This document shows, piece by piece, positions 205 to 63,076 of a stretch of 64,000 bases of DNA (its first letter is position 1; every line of letters begins with the position of its first letter). The translations under genes were made by a program, and so were the position numbers. Location of the stretch: IMG/VR virus record IMGVR_UViG_3300002030_000016. One strand, given 5' to 3'. The stretch comes from an uncultured virus (IMG/VR IMGVR_UViG_3300002030_000016) (lineage: Duplodnaviria > Heunggongvirae > Uroviricota > Caudoviricetes). The notes beneath the pieces were generated by a model. That model had not been told where the DNA came from. It did no database searches and saw only the letters and a program-made list of their open reading frames with translations.

Positions 205-420
205 TCAGGAAAATCCAGTCCCGTCTGTCTCGGCTTCGATGGCTTCGATGGCATCAGCGGACAATGGGGCGTCCCCTGATCGCCATGTGTCGAAGGCCAG
301 AAGGTGGAAGTCACGATCTGGCGTGTCCCCCAGCTTGCTGATGGGGTTGTCCGGGTAAAGCTGATTGTAGTCAGCCATAGCCAGCTTCAGCTTTTCTTCC
401 TGTTCTTCGGCATACGTCAT
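205..420 (-). CDS. small acidic protein, candidate immunity protein for the MuF peptidase
   Basis: 71 aa, ATGA-coupled to the MuF stop; this position matches MuF toxin-immunity pairs. Confidence 0.55.
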   Translation of the reverse strand: MTYAEEQEEKLKLAMADYNQLYPDNPISKLGDTPDRDFHLLAFDTWRSGDAPLSADAIEAIEAETDGTGFS

Positions 421-2237
421 CCTTCATCCCCTTCTTCGATGATCTGACGGAATTTCGCGATTGTGCGGGGGGCCATGCTTTCCATCATCCAACTGACGAA
501 TGCTGGATGGATCGAATGGCCTAGAAGCGCATTGGCGAACGCTTCAGTGGTGTTGCCCACGGTCACGTTCCCCTGAACTTTCGGGAACTGGGCATAGTAC
601 GCCTTGCTGTGACCCGCGCCACGCTCAAGGTTCGTGACAGCGCCCAAGAAGTCCAAGGTCATCTGCATCATGTAATCATTCAGATAGGCATCATGCAGGT
701 CTTCAACTGTCGCGTTCTGGTCCAGCTTCCGAATGGACGCACGCAGCGCCGCAATGGCCTCTTCGAAGTTTCCTTCATCGAAGGCCACATGGAAGTCGAA
801 TTCAGCCGCGCTGTCACCTTTCAGGATTTCCTGAAGCTGGGCGTTGGCCTCTGGGGACATTTCTGACGTGGGCTTGGTCCGCTTGGCGCGAAGTTCACCC
901 CTGTCTTCCATGATTTCGTTGACCATCTTGGTCGATTTGGCTTTCAGCAGGTCTTCGCCTTTGCTCAAATCGATTCCCGATGGCCCGAAATCGACCGCGT
1001 GGCCTACTTCGTGGAAGAAGGTGCCAACCCACTTCTTGCCCATCGCGGAATTTTCCCAATCCCTTGGAATTTTGATGGTGTGATCGTGCGGGGTGTAGAC
1101 GCCACCCTTGGTGCTGCTTCTGATCGTGACGCGCTCCAATCCCTCCATAGCGCGCTTGTAGATCGCATCCCCTTGGAACCGGGAAAGGTACGTTTCGACA
1201 ATGGATGGGGCGAATGCGGATTTCGTCTTCCGCTGACGCACCGGCGGGATGGGCGTGCCACCGGGGTCCACACCTTGGGCCACAGTGACAGGTTCGTCTG
1301 GGTCCGGTGCCGGGGTAGCGCGACCTGTTCCCCGCGCCGGTGCCGGGGCAAGCGCACGGGAAAGCTGGCCTTCCAGTTCGTTTTCCGGGTCTGGGTTCAC
1401 GTTCAGATCGATTTCCGGTGGTTCGGTGCCCAGAATGGACGATAGATCGATCTTCCGGCTTAGATAGCACCGGCACCCGTGCCGTTCTTCCGACGCTGCC
1501 AGTGGATCACCCGGATAGCGGATAAGGCTATGCAGCCCTTCGAATGGCTCGCCTTCCTTGCGCTGCTGACCGTGCATGTGGACATGGCTGTCCCTGACCT
1601 TGCCATCGCTCACGGATTTCCATGTGACCGTGATTTCATCAGCCGTGATGTCCCCGGTGTCCAGATACTGGGCATAGGATTCAATCTGACCTTCGTGGTG
1701 CGCCGCAAGGCTTTCCTGACGGGCCACTTCCTTCGCCCGGTCATCCAGCGTCTTCTGGGTGTATCGATCAACCATCCGGTCAATCTGTTCCTTGGTCAGT
1801 GGCTTTTCGCCGCTCAAGGCTTTGTTGATTGTCCGGTCAAACCGCTTGTCGCGACGGGCACGCTTCAGCGCCGCCTTATCGCCGGTTTCCAGCGCGGTGC
1901 GGAAGTTCTCGACAGCCTTGGCGTCCCTGTTGGTCAAACCGATGACAGAGCGAAGCTGACGCTTCCGGGTGTCACGGTCGATGGAATGCGCGCCACGTTC
2001 AATGGCCATCCGCTGGGCGGTGTTCAGGCGCTCCATCAGCGACCGGCGCGATGCGTCGATGGACGCAGCAGCACGACGATGGGTCACATCGAACGATGCG
2101 CTGTCCAGACCCAGTTGCTGCAGCATCTTCGCTTCACTCTCAGCAGAGGCGATGAACGATGCAGCATTGGCAGCCGCAACACGCGACATGACGACTTCGA
2201 TGCTTTCCATCGCTTCATCGAAGCGTCCGGCCTGCAT
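417..2237 (-). CDS. phage head morphogenesis protein (MuF / SPP1 gp7 family) with C-terminal zincin metallopeptidase domain; frame stays open upstream to 2456 with no ATG/GTG/TTG
   Basis: MuF motifs TWKSVSDGKVRDSHVHMHGQ...F...IRYPGDP...ERHGCRC; Pro-rich linker; FFHEVGHAVD (HExxH) plus GHSKAYY...TEAFA; located just after the portal. Confidence 0.85.
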   Translation of the reverse strand: MQAGRFDEAMESIEVVMSRVAAANAASFIASAESEAKMLQQLGLDSASFDVTHRRAAASIDASRRSLMERLNTAQRMAIERGAHSIDRDTRKRQLRSVIGLTNRDAKAVENFRTALETGDKAALKRARRDKRFDRTINKALSGEKPLTKEQIDRMVDRYTQKTLDDRAKEVARQESLAAHHEGQIESYAQYLDTGDITADEITVTWKSVSDGKVRDSHVHMHGQQRKEGEPFEGLHSLIRYPGDPLAASEERHGCRCYLSRKIDLSSILGTEPPEIDLNVNPDPENELEGQLSRALAPAPARGTGRATPAPDPDEPVTVAQGVDPGGTPIPPVRQRKTKSAFAPSIVETYLSRFQGDAIYKRAMEGLERVTIRSSTKGGVYTPHDHTIKIPRDWENSAMGKKWVGTFFHEVGHAVDFGPSGIDLSKGEDLLKAKSTKMVNEIMEDRGELRAKRTKPTSEMSPEANAQLQEILKGDSAAEFDFHVAFDEGNFEEAIAALRASIRKLDQNATVEDLHDAYLNDYMMQMTLDFLGAVTNLERGAGHSKAYYAQFPKVQGNVTVGNTTEAFANALLGHSIHPAFVSWMMESMAPRTIAKFRQIIEEGDEG

Positions 2238-2365
2238 CAGATCATCGATCTGGTTGATGTAGCGGTCTGTCTTCAGGATTGCGGTGGCGTCCCTGAACGC
2301 TTTGTAAATCCGGCTATCCGCCGCCTTCAGAAGTGCAAGAATGCGCCCTTCGTCATCAGGCTGGA

Positions 2366-3799
2366 CTAACTTGTCCCCGACCTTGGCGGTTCCGGCTTTT
2401 TTCCGGGTACGGGTGCCGCCGCGTTCTTGCCTGAAGGGTCCGTGGCTGCCTGAACTTCAGCGGCCTGCTTCCGCAATTCTGCCAGTTCCTCTTCTTCTGG
2501 CGTGGGGGGAAGGACGCCTGCTTCTCTTTCGTCTTCGACCTCTTCAACGTGCTGTTCGATGTTGGGCAACACCCCATCATTCGCAATCATGCTGACGAAC
2601 GACCGTTTCAGCGCCTCTGGGTCAATCAAGCCTGTTCTGTGGATCACAGACACCGTGCCCGCGCGCTTGCTGGCAGTGTCCGATTTTTCCTTATCAGTCG
2701 GCTGCCACAGCGGGTTCCAATCATAGTAGGATTCGGCTGGGTCAGCGCCCAGCGCGTGCAGCTTTAGCGCCGTGTCCAGCGGGGCGATGTCCGGTTCAAT
2801 GTCCACTTTTTGAATAGACGCGATGCCGTCATAATAGTTGCGGATTGACCCTTGGGCGCTATCCCCCAAGGACGCGGCTGAAACATCAGCAAGGCGTTCC
2901 ACGGGGATGTCAGCGGCACCGGCTGCCACCTTGATAGAGATTTCGATAACTTCAGGGATACCTGCGAAGTTGTAGGTCTTCTGTTCCCAGTTCTCTTCGT
3001 CGTCCAAAATCACGGCACCGTTGATGCCCTTGATCAGCATGGCGGCATCGAACCGCTTCAGCAGGGCTTCGATTCCCTTCTTGTTGGCGACGTGATCTGC
3101 AAGGTCTTTGACGTGGATGATGTCGGACTTGGCGTCGTGGATCAATTCAGCGATGGCAAAGCACATCCGGGCGATGTTCATCACCTGCTGGTGACAGGAT
3201 TGCAGGACGCTGTGCCCCCAGACACCATCGTTGATGCCAAATGCGGTGTCTTCGGCAACTGGACCCAAGAACTTGATCACCCGGCTGGGGTGGACTGACA
3301 CGAACTGGGTGTTGTCAATCGGGATTTGCCACATCTGAGGTTCGCCATACCAAGGGTCAGCGATGTCCTTGCGAACGTCATCGTAGGCGACTTCCTCACG
3401 GTCGAAGACGTGCAGATATTTGATGCTTCCCTTCGTCATCTTGTCGATAAGAAGGGGCTTCCTTGGGTCTTCGGCACCGTCGCCAATCAGCAGCAGAGCG
3501 CCGCCGCGCAACCGGGCCAAACGGCTGACCCGCTCCAATTTCCGAAGGATGCCCAGTTGCTTTTCGGCGTCTTCGATCTTGGACTGGTCTGTCCCTTCCA
3601 TGCCGTTCCACGTCCGCCATTCGCGGAATGCGTCACGCGCGGGGATGTTCACGATCTTCCGGGCAAGCCAGTCGTCCCGATACATGCGGAACAGTTCTGA
3701 TGGGCCAAGCGGTGCGAGTGCGTAACTGTCAGCGCCTGCGCGCCCCTGCATCGCCATCAGGTTTTCAGCCAAGGTGACTGCGTTATCCAACATCTTCAT
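2366..3799 (-). CDS. phage portal protein (DUF1073/HI1409-like)
   Basis: MYRDDWLARKIVNIPARDAFREW, VHPSRVI, GAADIPVERL, NYYDGI, WNPLWQ motifs; immediately after TerL. Confidence 0.9.
   Translation of the reverse strand: MKMLDNAVTLAENLMAMQGRAGADSYALAPLGPSELFRMYRDDWLARKIVNIPARDAFREWRTWNGMEGTDQSKIEDAEKQLGILRKLERVSRLARLRGGALLLIGDGAEDPRKPLLIDKMTKGSIKYLHVFDREEVAYDDVRKDIADPWYGEPQMWQIPIDNTQFVSVHPSRVIKFLGPVAEDTAFGINDGVWGHSVLQSCHQQVMNIARMCFAIAELIHDAKSDIIHVKDLADHVANKKGIEALLKRFDAAMLIKGINGAVILDDEENWEQKTYNFAGIPEVIEISIKVAAGAADIPVERLADVSAASLGDSAQGSIRNYYDGIASIQKVDIEPDIAPLDTALKLHALGADPAESYYDWNPLWQPTDKEKSDTASKRAGTVSVIHRTGLIDPEALKRSFVSMIANDGVLPNIEQHVEEVEDEREAGVLPPTPEEEELAELRKQAAEVQAATDPSGKNAAAPVPGKKPEPPRSGTS
2396..2402 (-). 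other. candidate programmed -1 ribosomal frameshift site (A AAA AAG) joining the portal to the MuF frame
   Basis: Portal codons GGA AAA AAG; the -1 frame (AAA AAA GCC GGA ACC...) is the MuF frame and is open to 417. Confidence 0.6.
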
Positions 3800-3808
3800 G
3801 ATGCACCT

Positions 3809-5047
3809 TCACAATCCATCGTAGATGGACCGTCCTTTGTTCTGAATCAGCGGTGAAAGCGCATAACGCCCCGCGTCGATGGTGTGGTTTTCCTTGTCCA
3901 CGATGTCAGTCAAGATGTCGCCTGCCTTGTTGATCTTGTAGCTGTAGAGCCGGAATTCGCGGTGAACGCGAGGGCACGCCGGATGGATGACGTGCTTGTA
4001 TGTTCGCAAGAATTCGACGCCATCTTCAACGGACCCTTTCCACTTATCGACGCCTTCCAGTCGTCTAAACCCTCCGTTGCGTCTAACATAACTAATCGTC
4101 TCAGGTCGCGCATTGTCCGCACGGACTTTGAAATCAACGGCTTCTGGGATGTCCTTCTGCCAATTCGGGCCGATGTCCTCCATTTCCCACTTCACGCCAC
4201 CCGATTCCCGGCACCAGTAGATCACCCCGTCGAAGACGTACATTTCGACCAGATACGTTGGGTCCACGCTGAAGCCCCAGTCAGCGCCATAGTAGGGTCC
4301 GTCCCATTCGGGCTTGATGTCGAATTCTTCGACCCGGAACTTGCCAGAGAAAATCTGTGCTTCTGATCTGGTGTTGTAGCCACCAAGCCAGACGTGTTCG
4401 AACGTCTCCCAGTCGCCTTGCCGGTCGTGTTCGATTTCGATGGACAGCGCGCCCAGCGGGTACGGGTTGTCCGTGTAGTTGACCTGAATGGCGATGGTGT
4501 CCGGGTTGCCGCCTTCCAGCGCCCCGTTCTCCATTTCGTTGCGGAAGAAGTGGTCAATCGCGTCATCAGGCTGGTTCGGGTTCCACGATGCCCAGATTTG
4601 CGAACCTTCCTTACGGATGGTGGGGCGAAGCAGCGTCCACGACCGCTTGGACAGGCTTTGGGCTTCTTCGATCCATGCCCAGTCCATCCCTTCCAGCGAC
4701 TTGATGGATTCGGCATTGTGTTCCTGCATCCCCGCGAAGATGATGAAGCCCTTGCCACCCTTCCGCTTGATGACGGTTTCTTGGATTTCGAACAGGTGGG
4801 CCACGCCCAACTTGCTGATCTTCTCTTCAATCAGCGCCTTCGAACTGTACTTCAGAGATTTCTGCGTCTCACGGATACAGACCCCTTTGCAGTTCGGGTC
4901 GATGACCAGACGTTCAACTCCCATTTCAGCAAATTCATGGGACTTGCCGGACCCGCGCCCACCGTAAGCGCCCAGATAGCGGTGCGCTGGTGTCATGGGC
5001 AGCGCCCAGCGGGGCCGCTTCCGGGTAAAGGTCGCACCGTCAATCAA
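3809..5047 (-). CDS. terL: terminase large subunit (PBSX-type)
   Basis: Walker A YGGRGSGKSH, Walker B WIEEAQ, coupling motif SWNP, nuclease motifs ADWGF and NHTIDAGRY. Confidence 0.95.
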   Translation of the reverse strand: MIDGATFTRKRPRWALPMTPAHRYLGAYGGRGSGKSHEFAEMGVERLVIDPNCKGVCIRETQKSLKYSSKALIEEKISKLGVAHLFEIQETVIKRKGGKGFIIFAGMQEHNAESIKSLEGMDWAWIEEAQSLSKRSWTLLRPTIRKEGSQIWASWNPNQPDDAIDHFFRNEMENGALEGGNPDTIAIQVNYTDNPYPLGALSIEIEHDRQGDWETFEHVWLGGYNTRSEAQIFSGKFRVEEFDIKPEWDGPYYGADWGFSVDPTYLVEMYVFDGVIYWCRESGGVKWEMEDIGPNWQKDIPEAVDFKVRADNARPETISYVRRNGGFRRLEGVDKWKGSVEDGVEFLRTYKHVIHPACPRVHREFRLYSYKINKAGDILTDIVDKENHTIDAGRYALSPLIQNKGRSIYDGL

Positions 5048-8764: not shown

Positions 8765-8840
8765 TGGAGAACGGGGCGGGGTTCGAACCCGCGTCAATCT
8801 GGGTTTGCAATCCAGCGCATAGCCACTCTGCCACCCGTTC
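8765..8840 (-). tRNA. tRNA-Cys (GCA)
   Basis: Acceptor stem GAACGGG/CCCGTTC, discriminator U, encoded CCA; D-loop TGGCAGAGTGG; anticodon loop TTGCAAA; T-arm GCGGGTTCGAACCCCGC; A31-C39 mismatch. Confidence 0.92.
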
Positions 8841-9485: not shown

Positions 9486-10061
9486 CTACTTCGGTGGTTT
9501 GGGCGGTTCCGGCGGTTTGATTGCCGGTTCCATGACTTCGTAAACGACCTTGACCGGGGCAGCGAGCGTGACCGTTTCGTTGCTTTCGGTCTTGTCCGTC
9601 AGGCCCAGATCACGGGCAATGATGTTGGCGTTGAACTGGTCAGCAGCCGCGCCTTCGAACTTCTGGGTCTTGATGATTTCATAGGCCATCGCCGTGACCC
9701 CTGAAAAATCGGCACGTTGAACGTAGTCCACCCACGTCTGTTCCCCGATGCCCAAGAAGATGCGAAGGCCACTCAGGGTCATTGCACGCAGCTTGGGAAC
9801 GTCGGCATGAACGACCTTGCCGCCATTGTGGAAGACCTTGCGTTCGTACAGTGGGTTTGCCTCTACCCACTCGAAATATTCGACGCACGCGGACCATAGG
9901 TCTTCAGGTGTTTCGAAGATGGGCTTCCGGCCATGCGAGGACCGGGCCTTCCAGAAGTTGTTGCCCGGTAGGAATTTTCCATCAACGGACTTGCCTTCGC
10001 CACCCGGCTTTGGGGGCTTGCTTCCGTCTTTAGACGCTGGGGGTGCGGTTGTTTCTGGCAT
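9486..10061 (-). CDS. terS: terminase small subunit (P22 gp3-like DNA-packaging protein)
   Basis: GNNFWKARSSHGRKPIFETPEDLWSACVEYFEWVEANPL...RAMTLSGLRIFLGI...QKFEGAAA...NANIIARDLGL closely resembles P22 gp3. Confidence 0.9.
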   Translation of the reverse strand: MPETTAPPASKDGSKPPKPGGEGKSVDGKFLPGNNFWKARSSHGRKPIFETPEDLWSACVEYFEWVEANPLYERKVFHNGGKVVHADVPKLRAMTLSGLRIFLGIGEQTWVDYVQRADFSGVTAMAYEIIKTQKFEGAAADQFNANIIARDLGLTDKTESNETVTLAAPVKVVYEVMEPAIKPPEPPKPPK

Positions 10062-37436: not shown

Positions 37437-38645
37437 ATGACCACCAATATCAGTTGGACCGATGAAACTTGGAATCCTGTTGTGGGCTGCACGATTGTCA
37501 GCCCCGGCTGCACCAACTGCTATGCGATGAACATGGCAAGACGCTTGGAAGCAATGGGCGTAGATCACTACAAAGGGCTGACCCGGATGTCTGGTGGTCG
37601 CGCCATCTGGACGGGGAAAGTTACAACCGCACCAGATCACGTCTGGGATAAGCCCTTCAAATGGCGGGAACCACGGATGATCTTCGTGAATTCTATGAGC
37701 GACCTTTTCCACAAGTCTTTTTCAAATGAAGACATCGACCGGGCCTTGGGTGTCATGGCGGTGGCAGGGCAAAAATTTCAAGGCGCTGGGGATGGGTACA
37801 CCGTAAGCGGTTCTTGGACATCTTCGAAAGGGCACGAAGTCCCGATAAGGTGGCCAAACCAAAAGTCGGGACCGCATGTCTTCCAGATACTGACCAAGCG
37901 CGCTGACCGGATGCGGGAACACATGACCACCCGCCGCGCCCAGATCGCCGCTGCTGCTTACAGAGCAGCCCATAACAGGATTTGCGCTGGTGGCCTTGCT
38001 GACGCCATAGAAAACGGAAGCAACTGGCCATTGCCGAATGTTTGGCTGGGCATCAGCGCAGAAGACCAAGCTACCGCCAACGAACGCATTCCTGATCTTT
38101 TGGCCACCCCGGCGGAAGTTCGGTGGATTAGCGCCGAACCACTACTGGATCGTATCGATCTGGCATCTATCAGAACCATGAAATTTCGCGGGGCAGAAGG
38201 CGTGAATGCCTTCACTGGCGATTTGATGGATTTCATGGGCGAACCTGTAGGAAAGACCAACACTATCGATTGGATGGTGGTGGGTGGTGAGAGTGGACCC
38301 AAAGCACGCCCCATGAACCCAGACTGGGTGATCGAACTGGAAATCCAGTGTGAACAGTCGGGCATCCCTTTCCACCTGAAACAGTGGGGCGAATGGATTT
38401 CTTATGACAACTTCGGTGCGAACGGCTGGCAACACACCAGAATGAAGGGCGGCAAGAACCTTGGAAAGCTGGTCTTCGGTGGTTTTGGTCAAAGCACGCT
38501 GTCTGATCGTGAGTACGAAACCCGCTATCCGTGGGCTACCGAACACAGACCCGGACCCTGCATGGTTCGCGTAGGAAAAAAAGCGGCTGGGCGCAAATTG
38601 TTTGGGAAGGTCTATGACGCATACCCAGAAAGGGACGCCGCATGA
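37437..38645 (+). CDS. phage Gp37/Gp68 (DUF5131) family radical-SAM-like protein
   Basis: ISWTDETWNPVVGCTIVSPGCTNCYA, FVNSMSDLFH, FQILTKR, NVWLGIS, ISAEPLL, VVGGESG, FHLKQWG. Confidence 0.92.
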   Translation: MTTNISWTDETWNPVVGCTIVSPGCTNCYAMNMARRLEAMGVDHYKGLTRMSGGRAIWTGKVTTAPDHVWDKPFKWREPRMIFVNSMSDLFHKSFSNEDIDRALGVMAVAGQKFQGAGDGYTVSGSWTSSKGHEVPIRWPNQKSGPHVFQILTKRADRMREHMTTRRAQIAAAAYRAAHNRICAGGLADAIENGSNWPLPNVWLGISAEDQATANERIPDLLATPAEVRWISAEPLLDRIDLASIRTMKFRGAEGVNAFTGDLMDFMGEPVGKTNTIDWMVVGGESGPKARPMNPDWVIELEIQCEQSGIPFHLKQWGEWISYDNFGANGWQHTRMKGGKNLGKLVFGGFGQSTLSDREYETRYPWATEHRPGPCMVRVGKKAAGRKLFGKVYDAYPERDAA

Positions 38646-39205
38646 AGTACGTCATCGGTCAGAACGTCCCGTGGAATGCGTCGTGGTCAGCAGAAGCTGA
38701 CACCGGCTTCAAGGTTAAGCGGTGCCAGTTCTCGCAAGGACAGCGGGCCATCTGGCAGATCGAAAGGCCGGGGGTGGGCGTTCCCATATTCGCAAAGCCA
38801 CACCCGGTCAGACAGCGCCAGTCCATCGATCAGATGCTTTGCACCGTTTGCGGAAAACCAACCCTTGAAGGAATGGGGGACCGCTGGTGGTTCGGATTTG
38901 GGATGCTGAACGACGGGCATTTCATGACTTCCGAATCGCCAGTCCACCATCGATGCGCCAAAATATCGGAACGGCTCTGCCCTCGCATACGGGCATTCAG
39001 CTTGAAGCCCCAGCCTTGGCCTGATGGTTCTCGAAAGCTGATGGCGTTTGTTGGCGGCAAGGAAGTCGAAAACGATTTTGGGATTCGGGTGAAGACAGGT
39101 CAGATCGTCGTGGGGTCTTTGAAGCTGGGCTGGCCTATCGCAGAAGCGATGAAGATACCGGAAATCGCACGCCACATCCGCCCTGAAAATCTGGTGAGTT
39201 CATGA
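38642..39205 (+). CDS. Cys/His-containing hypothetical protein
   Basis: VPWNASWSAE..HPVRQR..LCTVCG..VHHRCA..LCP. Confidence 0.65.
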   Translation: MKYVIGQNVPWNASWSAEADTGFKVKRCQFSQGQRAIWQIERPGVGVPIFAKPHPVRQRQSIDQMLCTVCGKPTLEGMGDRWWFGFGMLNDGHFMTSESPVHHRCAKISERLCPRIRAFSLKPQPWPDGSRKLMAFVGGKEVENDFGIRVKTGQIVVGSLKLGWPIAEAMKIPEIARHIRPENLVSS

Positions 39206-62435: not shown

Positions 62436-62663
62436 CTAAACGGGGTGTTCGCCCCGTCTGATCAAATCAGCAGCGCGTCGATATTCTTCGTCTGTCATGG
62501 GCTTCCCTTTGGTCGTGCCGTTCTGCCCCCGTCGTCTGGCGTTGACGCCTTGGGTCAGTTCGATGAATTCGGGAAGTGTCAAATCGCCCAATGCGCTTGG
62601 GCCGATTCCTAGTTCTGCGAGCGCCGCGAGCGCCTGCGATTTCGAGAGCGGTTCCGCTTTTTT
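62436..62663 (-). CDS. -1 frameshift extension of the tail assembly chaperone (G-T type)
   Basis: Slippery A AAA AAG at 62663-62657; the -1 frame reads AEPLSKSQALAALAELGIGPSALGDLTLPEF...RGEHPV to TAG at 62436. Confidence 0.8.
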   Translation of the reverse strand, partial: KKAEPLSKSQALAALAELGIGPSALGDLTLPEFIELTQGVNARRRGQNGTTKGKPMTDEEYRRAADLIRRGEHPV

Positions 62664-63076
62664 TTTTCGAAGCGGGGGCTGTCTTCTTCCAAGACTTGGG
62701 CACCCATCATAGCAACGCCGATGATGGCCTGTGCGACCTTGGCCGCTTCCAAAAGGCCCATCCCGTCATCAGAGCAAATACGGTCCACGACGCCACGGGC
62801 TTCACCCGGCTGTGCGCCACCACCGATCAGGGCATGGCGGATAACTTCCGTCACGTCCTTTCCAGAGAAAGAACCGTCAGCCAAGTCCTTCCAAATCTGC
62901 CCAATGGGCTTGGGCCTCTTCCCGTCATCCCCGAAATATCCACAGACATCTTCAACTTCGAAGATGTGTTCCATGCGAAGACGGAATTGACGTTCAGCGC
63001 CCAAGATATTGAGGGTAGTCCCGCCGCGATAAGCATTGCGACGGGCTTCCTTCTCGTGGTCGTTATCCCAGATCAT
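62609..63076 (-). CDS. tail assembly chaperone (GTA gp10-like)
   Basis: DVTEVIRHALIGGG motif; between the tail tube and tape measure genes. Confidence 0.8.
   Translation of the reverse strand: MIWDNDHEKEARRNAYRGGTTLNILGAERQFRLRMEHIFEVEDVCGYFGDDGKRPKPIGQIWKDLADGSFSGKDVTEVIRHALIGGGAQPGEARGVVDRICSDDGMGLLEAAKVAQAIIGVAMMGAQVLEEDSPRFEKKKRNRSRNRRRSRRSQN

Follow-up and report, generated by a model that had tools for sequence, protein, structure and literature searches.

The 64,000-nucleotide (nt) stretch of DNA analysed here (the window) is the IMG/VR record IMGVR_UViG_3300002030_000016 of an uncultured marine tailed phage. On its minus strand, the genes for the large terminase subunit and the portal protein and an open reading frame (ORF) for a MuF-type head morphogenesis protein follow one another in this order, and the junction between the last two carries a slippery heptamer, A_AAA_AAG, at which a −1 ribosomal frameshift would fuse the portal to the MuF protein (Table 1). 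The portal assignment follows from a match to PF06381 (Phage_portal_3, DUF1073; residues 36–384, E 9.2e-89, 298.1 bits against a cut-off of 33.8) together with the place of the gene after the terminase gene at 5047–3809; its C-terminal ~60 residues form an acidic, proline-rich tail. The MuF domain scores above the curated cut-off of PF04233, the SPP1 gp7 family (38.7 against 29.6 bits), matches phrog_3517 with E 2.7e-60 and is encoded next to the portal gene. MuF is single-copy in the window, where a tblastn search with five homologues found no second copy.

The 3′ end of the portal gene reads CCC GGA AAA AAG CCG GAA CCG CCA AGG TCG GGG ACA AGT TAG in frame. Since the portal frame reads GGA AAA AAG at this place, A_AAA_AAG sits in the X_XXY_YYZ phase within the upstream ORF, with nine sense codons left before the stop. 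A slip by −1 leads into the MuF frame, and the coordinates that the initial annotation gave for this site, 2402–2396, hold. The MuF frame, which is the −1 frame, stays open over 2453–417 and includes 72 codons (2453–2238) ahead of the ATG at 2237. The two genes do not form a constitutive fusion, as the portal frame ends at 2368–2366 and MuF lies in the −1 frame. The predicted slip junction is ...PVPGKK followed directly by AGTAKVGDK..., continuing as AGTAKVGDKLVQPDDEGRILALL, and the predicted fusion would measure 468 + 659 = 1127 amino acids (aa).

Judged by homology, alignment, a structure model and selection, the stretch before the ATG at 2237 is genuine, translated MuF coding sequence, into which the −1 frame runs without a start codon of its own. 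As the initial annotation had stated, none of the 72 codons is an ATG, GTG or TTG; by codon reading, the frame from 2453 to 2346 holds no CTG, ATT, ATC or ATA either. The first alternative start codons are an ATT and then the CTG at 2330, none of them 5′ of the conserved LVQPDDEGR, and no start-like codon adjoins the portal stop. The ATG at 2237 also lacks a Shine–Dalgarno (SD) sequence, again in agreement with the earlier reading: the calculated duplex energy is +0.3 kcal/mol, whereas the median over the genes is −5.35, with weak SDs occurring at several other genes of this phage too.

Homology to MuF proteins begins well upstream of this ATG, and the view that the stretch reads like a normal MuF N-terminus has thus gained ground. 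The phrog_3517 alignment starts at PDDEGR (profile position 7 of 371), 40 codons 5′ of the ATG, and in the tblastn search of the window all five MuF homologues start aligning at 2357–2336. A phmmer search with the 332 residues read after the slip, against a database of 1.84 billion representatives, gave 3881 matches at E ≤ 1e-3; the best 150 are nearly all free proteins of ~310–340 aa whose residues 2–20 align to query residues 11–21. Five proteins among these best 150 have at least 77 extra N-terminal residues (P0005, P0014, P0016, P0133 and P0150), none with a portal domain. In an alignment of 13 sequences, the initiator methionine of the homologues falls on the linker AGTAKVGD, right after the slip site, and the ATG at 2237 aligns with an internal leucine, isoleucine or phenylalanine. 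An AlphaFold2 model from a 66-sequence alignment (mean predicted local distance difference test score, pLDDT, 92.3; predicted template modelling score, pTM, 0.88) predicts residues 1–11 after the slip to be disordered, followed by helices at 15–41 and 44–55 with block-mean pLDDT values of 96–98; both helices are reported to precede Met54, the residue encoded by the ATG at 2237. A fold search of the PDB with this model returned no match at E ≤ 0.001. What goes beyond chance at the heptamer is its frame together with its position exactly at the onset of the MuF homology.

The arrangement recurs in a diverged relative, L003. This IMG/VR contig measures 72,271 bp, has terminal repeats, is rated complete and is the sole diverged relative with the same layout (85% identity in the MuF domain, 73% in the portal). 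In the alignment, A_AAA_AAA occupies the heptamer column of its portal gene; frame offset and position of the portal stop agree with the window, and here, too, portal and MuF are no constitutive fusion. The column was kept although the bases on both flanks changed and two 3-nt indels lie nearby. The dual-coding overlap at 2366–2395 differs by eight substitutions and one 3-nt indel, and the MuF frame of L003 is open for 85 codons devoid of ATG, GTG and TTG up to a TTG that corresponds to the CTG at 2330. Conservation of the heptamer, of the overlap and of the missing start had been set beforehand as a check on the proposal, and all three are kept in L003, that is, in one of one diverged relative, a minimal sample.

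The substitutions that separate the two genomes follow the proposed reading frames. Upstream of the heptamer (2797–2403), 68 of 115 substitutions fall at portal codon position 3. Of the 15 between the portal stop and the ATG (2365–2238), 14 hit the third position of a MuF codon and the remaining one, CTG/TTG, is a silent change at position 1, so that no residue differs; past the ATG (2237–2100), 21 of 35 fall at MuF codon position 3. The third-position signal thus follows the portal frame up to the overlap and the MuF frame beyond it, and by these counts the codons before the ATG are constrained at least as much as those after it.

The same phage carries a comparator for the proposed event. 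Two overlapping ORFs, the tail assembly chaperone gene G (63076–62609) and its extension T, lie between the genes for the major tail protein (63522–63073) and the tape measure protein (62423–58599) and are joined by a −1 slippery site; 13 nt separate the end of the −1 frame of G from the start of the tape measure gene. The slip site, A_AAA_AAG at 62663–62657, reads TTC GAA AAA AAA AAG CGG AAC CGC and lies within a run of ten A (62667–62658). If this site is used, as such sites generally are, ribosomes of the host would slip on A_AAA_AAG. Directly 3′ of both in-frame heptamers stands the 9-mer CGGAACCGC, at 2394–2386 in the portal gene and at 62656–62648 in the chaperone gene, and A10-G-CGGAACCGC is identical in the genome of L003. 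The window holds three copies of the 9-mer where 0.89 would be expected, the third at 9503–9511, and its presence after both heptamers is hard to ascribe to chance.

In a crude gene model of the window there are three in-phase A_AAA_AAR sites, namely those in the portal gene and in G and one at 38576. The last is found in a gene for a cysteine-rich protein of 402 aa (ATG at 37437), 23 codons short of the stop; we rejected this third place as a recoding site, its −1 frame being only 41 codons long (38575–38700) and showing no sign of use. The only tRNA gene in the window is a tRNA-Cys (GCA) at 8765–8840 on the minus strand; the window thus holds no tRNA-Lys able to modulate slipping on lysine codons.

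Table 1. Features of the portal–MuF junction and of the comparator sites in the window.
Feature	Position	Strand	Details
Large terminase subunit gene	3809..5047	−	PF04466 (E 6.3e-33), PF17288 (E 1.4e-10); immediately 5′ of the portal gene
Portal gene, 477-aa zero-frame product	2366..3799	−	Stop TAG at 2368–2366; matches phrog_146
Slippery heptamer A_AAA_AAG, proposed −1 shift site	2396..2402	−	Portal-frame codons GGA AAA AAG at 2404–2396
Dual-coding overlap	2366..2395	−	Frame 0, portal tail PEPPRSGTS*; frame −1, linker AGTAKVGDKL
Hairpin of the initial annotation	2358..2383	−	Minimum free energy fold keeps only a 4-bp GGAC/GUCC core
MuF N-terminal coding sequence (VQPDDEGRILALLKAADSRIYKAFRDATAILKTDRYINQIDDL), lacking a usable start codon 5′ of it	2238..2365	−	Homology, substitutions, model
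ATG taken as MuF start by gene callers	2235..2237	−	Internal codon in homologues
MuF ORF as called by gene callers, 606 aa	ATG 2237 to 417	−	Directly 3′ of the portal gene
MuF domain (head morphogenesis / minor capsid), 332 aa from the slip onward	1401..2396	−	PF04233, phrog_3517
Zincin-like C-terminal domain, after a proline-rich linker	420..1244	−	HEVGH at 1013–999
Tail assembly chaperone G with −1 extension T	62436..63076	−	G at 63076–62609; extension to TAG at 62436
Putative third in-phase slippery site, A_AAA_AAA then G	38576–38582	+	In the gene at 37437–38645

Based on the heptamer, the two frames, the missing start and the selection on the codons before the ATG, we consider a −1 ribosomal frameshift that yields a 1127-aa fusion of portal, MuF and zincin-like domain the best-supported explanation, and give it a probability of roughly 0.65. 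The mechanism is known, the junction is undescribed, and one strong pairwise comparison stands behind the proposal. Several observations weigh against it. Neither a hairpin or pseudoknot at 5–9 nt from the heptamer nor an upstream SD-like motif was found. The letters of the hairpin proposed in the initial annotation exist at 2383–2358, but its stability is that of shuffled sequences (z −0.01 in the window and −0.85 in L003) and the spacer is 12–17 nt; upstream of the heptamer there is no SD-like motif and no GGAGG. At phage sites of the G/GT type, a stimulatory element is not known to be obligatory. The 9-mer CGGAACCGC likewise fails as a conserved stimulator: the resemblance to the context of the chaperone slip site, already remarked upon in the initial annotation, stands for the window, and the 9-mer is present at the G/GT sites of both genomes but missing at the portal site of L003. 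The motif AAAAAAG itself is not rare, with seven copies in the window against 9.5 expected. The argument from conservation rests on one comparison because only L003 shares the layout, and the in-frame TTG of L003 could yield an N-terminally clipped MuF protein. The A-run was checked on assembled contigs, which hide minor length variants. Finally, distant relatives are built differently. We surveyed 80 viral loci whose MuF is 30–46% identical; four run off their contig and one is L003's own contig, and all 75 remaining loci have their own ATG, GTG or TTG at or before the equivalent of query residue 14. In Roseobacter phage RDJL Phi 1 (L091, HM151342.1 40301–48242), two small genes, gp68 and gp69, lie between gp67 and the MuF gene gp70.

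Slippage could also occur during transcription, in which case RNA polymerase would add one A in the A-run and part of the mRNAs would encode the same fusion. All comparative evidence for the fusion fits this explanation equally well, the two kinds of slippage being indistinguishable by sequence, and the site is homopolymeric in both genomes, with six A in the window and seven in L003. The G/GT site of the phage, moreover, comprises ten consecutive A, and polymerase slippage on runs of that length is known from Thermus dnaX and from insertion sequence (IS) elements. Appreciable polymerase slippage, however, usually needs about nine A, more than the six or seven present at the portal site, and a polymerase does not require the exact X_XXY_YYZ phase in which both A_AAA_AAG and A_AAA_AAA are found. 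We therefore regard transcriptional slippage as unlikely.

A further explanation dispenses with recoding: an internal start at the ATG at 2237, or at the CTG at 2330 and the corresponding TTG of L003, would give a shortened, free MuF protein, and the conservation upstream would have another cause. Gene callers did pick such starts, and the TTG of L003 is a canonical start codon with a weak GAAGGG 15 nt 5′ of it (duplex energy −4.1 kcal/mol), which is no weaker than the SDs at several genes of this phage. Yet neither candidate is kept in both genomes, the ATG at 2237 being a CTG in L003 and the TTG of L003 a CTG in the window; the gene callers accordingly disagree, with 606 aa for the window (P0001) and 645 aa for L003 (P0151). 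Between the portal stop and the CTG at 2330, all five substitutions are synonymous third-position changes in the MuF frame. A start at 2237, where no SD is present, would delete the two modelled helices, and one at 2330 would cut into the first of them, helices that the 66 aligned homologues conserve. On this evidence an internal start seems quite improbable.

Free, full-length MuF protein could be made if an unconventional codon between the stop at 2456–2454 and LVQPDD served as start, or if ribosomes terminated and reinitiated at the portal stop. Homologous MuF proteins are normally free, their methionine aligning just here, and an ATC is present in the linker of L003. This ATC is a GTC in the window, whose own MuF frame is devoid of all seven start-like codons as far as 2346, and nothing resembling a start codon stands beside the portal stop, which makes such initiation very unlikely. 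Least likely of all, and close to negligible in our judgement, is an artefact or decay, i.e. a one-base assembly error in the error-prone A-run that masks a constitutive fusion, or a start-less MuF pseudogene: the same A6G stands in the window and in the IMG/VR contigs L001 and L002, which are identical to it across the junction, as well as in Logan contigs of two studies that span 2396–2402 free of indels (X1 record 2; X2/X3, a strain with four single-nucleotide polymorphisms at word depth 18.8), L003 has a different run (A7 then C4) at the same frame offset, and MuF, the only copy in the window, is under strong purifying selection over its whole length (85% amino-acid identity with many synonymous changes). 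A homopolymer error had been named in advance as something to exclude, and the independent assembled contigs contain no extra A; X4 does not extend over the junction.

One related contig would fit decay. L094 (IMGVR_UViG_3300000976_000031), otherwise near-identical, has a 97-nt deletion at the equivalent of window ~976–880, flanked by a 13-nt repeat and lying just past HEVGHAVDFGPS; the resulting change of frame cuts the zincin-like domain short. This may be either a natural variant or a mis-assembly.

How widely is this junction distributed? By the comparisons made here, the layout is confined to a small clade and is carried by two lineages. Members of the clade beyond L001–L003 were found neither by blastn against cultured phages nor in the nearest record, G001, nor in a genome contig scan, in protein searches or in scans of viral contigs that started from the C-terminal domain or from the portal (protein and alignment); among the matches listed from a metagenome contig scan, whose patterns were too generic, there was no further member either. 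The closest cultured relatives of the MuF domain, at 35–36% identity, belong to siphophages of the Xiamenvirus type (RDJL Phi 1, RDJL Phi 2 and Ruegeria phage Tedan), which resemble the phage of the window in genome size (~62–64 kb), MuF family and marine habitat. Unlike in the window, the MuF protein gp70 of RDJL Phi 1 has its own start and is devoid of a C-terminal zincin domain; gp67, of 480 aa and annotated as hypothetical, is a portal by position alone. Since gp68 and gp69 are absent from the window and MuF abuts the portal gene there, the junction probably arose by deletion.

Portals that carry further domains on the same polypeptide are known from the same family. Many PF06381 portals at 33–41% identity bear a C-terminal Acb1 (directed against the cyclic oligonucleotide-based antiphage signalling system, CBASS), an ADP-ribosyltransferase or PF18812 on the same ORF, for example P0159, P0175, P0221, P0277 and P0282. 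The last of these, with PF06381 at 34% identity, joins portal, MuF and Acb1 in a single ORF of 890 aa. Another long portal homologue, P0281 (1133 aa), is not a MuF fusion. The PHROG profiles phrog_2662 and phrog_859, both named portal protein, match the MuF part. In Microbacterium phages of subclusters EA3, EA5 and EA8 and of cluster EB, portal and MuF genes are described as fused in the available part of the report (PMC7302621). Such single-ORF proteins show that a covalent link between portal and MuF is tolerated in nature, and they have the two domains in the order proposed here. They are constitutive, so that all 12 subunits carry MuF; in the window, portal and MuF lie in different frames, so that translation yields unfused portal by default and the fusion would be made in a minority of cases.

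Two well-known frameshifts offer a comparison. The −1 frameshift of the tail chaperone genes G/GT is reportedly found in lambda and most long-tailed phages (Xu, Hendrix and Duda 2004 are said to have described it). It shares with the portal site a heptamer close to the 3′ end of the first ORF, a start-less extension in the −1 frame and a ratio of short to long product that is set by the slip. It differs in that the portal and MuF genes belong to the head module, that the extension of 659 aa exceeds the upstream protein in length and that the long product, rather than an assembly chaperone, would be a structural or cargo subunit of a 12-mer. In Escherichia coli dnaX, which encodes tau and gamma, the −1 frameshift occurs on A_AAA_AAG by a tandem slip of lysine tRNAs. 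The heptamer is identical to that of the portal gene, and the same tandem slip is the mechanism that we propose. The SD-like element upstream and the stem-loop downstream that flank the dnaX site have no detectable counterpart at the portal site, and the dnaX shift truncates the product, whereas the portal shift would extend it.

The MuF protein itself resembles polymorphic toxins and phage polyvalent proteins. In the sections available of Jamet et al. 2017 (PMC5576092), MuF polymorphic toxins are described as a MuF domain followed by a variable C-terminal enzymatic domain, and in phage polyvalent proteins the accessible part of Iyer et al. 2017 (PMC5512222) finds no such domain more often than the zincin-like MPTase, for which it proposes self-processing or attack on host proteins as roles. 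The window MuF shares this architecture. Unlike it, those proteins have a start of their own and, as far as these sources indicate, are thought to reach the head by binding the portal non-covalently; SPP1 gp7 and gp6 serve as the model for such MuF–portal binding in the available text of PMC6316719, and one to two copies of gp7 per SPP1 capsid are given in that of PMC5576092. Neither Jamet et al. nor Iyer et al. mention a frameshift, the word occurring in neither text. In the full-text literature, subscription journals being outside the scope, we found no description of a frameshift from portal to MuF.

The last ~275 residues of the MuF ORF form a C-terminal domain in which KKWVGTFFHEVGHAVDFGPSG is invariant with respect to L003 despite an overall identity of 58%. 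Based on its sequence, the domain is likely to be a peptidase. The invariant HEVGH speaks for the label that the initial annotation had given it; the matches to PF18818 (MPTase-PolyVal) remain below threshold, at 17.8 bits for the window and 20.6 bits for L003 against a cut-off of 27.5. As a lead, a protein atlas pointed to clusters of 'zincin-like metallopeptidase' with a score of 0.94. A PDB sequence search with the C-terminal half gave no match, and an AlphaFold2 model from a two-sequence alignment is unusable (pLDDT 37.7). The 618-aa MuF protein P0152 was set aside, its own C-terminal domain being different.

How would the proposed frameshift operate? Most ribosomes would read through the heptamer to the portal stop and produce the 477-aa portal. 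A minority would slip back by one base on A_AAA_AAG, 10 codons before the stop, and continue through the disordered linker into MuF and the zincin-like domain. As the MuF ORF lacks its own start codon, this frameshift would be the only, or the main, route of its synthesis. The slip rate would then set the number of the 12 portal subunits that bear cargo; only few would do so, in line with the low copy number of gp7 in SPP1 capsids. Once incorporated into the head, the cargo would sit inside at the DNA channel, ready to exit with the DNA. Its release may be due to cleavage by the zincin domain, a step that we consider because self-processing is among the roles put forward for this domain in the accessible part of Iyer et al. 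2017 (PMC5512222).

We tentatively suggest, with somewhat less than even confidence, that −1 recoding from portal to MuF may be a second conserved class of frameshift in the morphogenesis of tailed phages, parallel to that of G/GT, by which a covalently tethered, ejectable cargo would be dosed that the zincin domain would then free, so as to enter the host together with the DNA. If the proposed frameshift is true, the annotation of this head module would change, as the MuF calls of 606 and 645 aa would start at arbitrary internal codons and miss the 1127-aa product. The slip rate would be a simple genetic answer to the task of packaging few copies of a portal-bound cargo, and the junction would represent a tunable intermediate that links constitutive portal–MuF fusions with MuF-anchored effectors.

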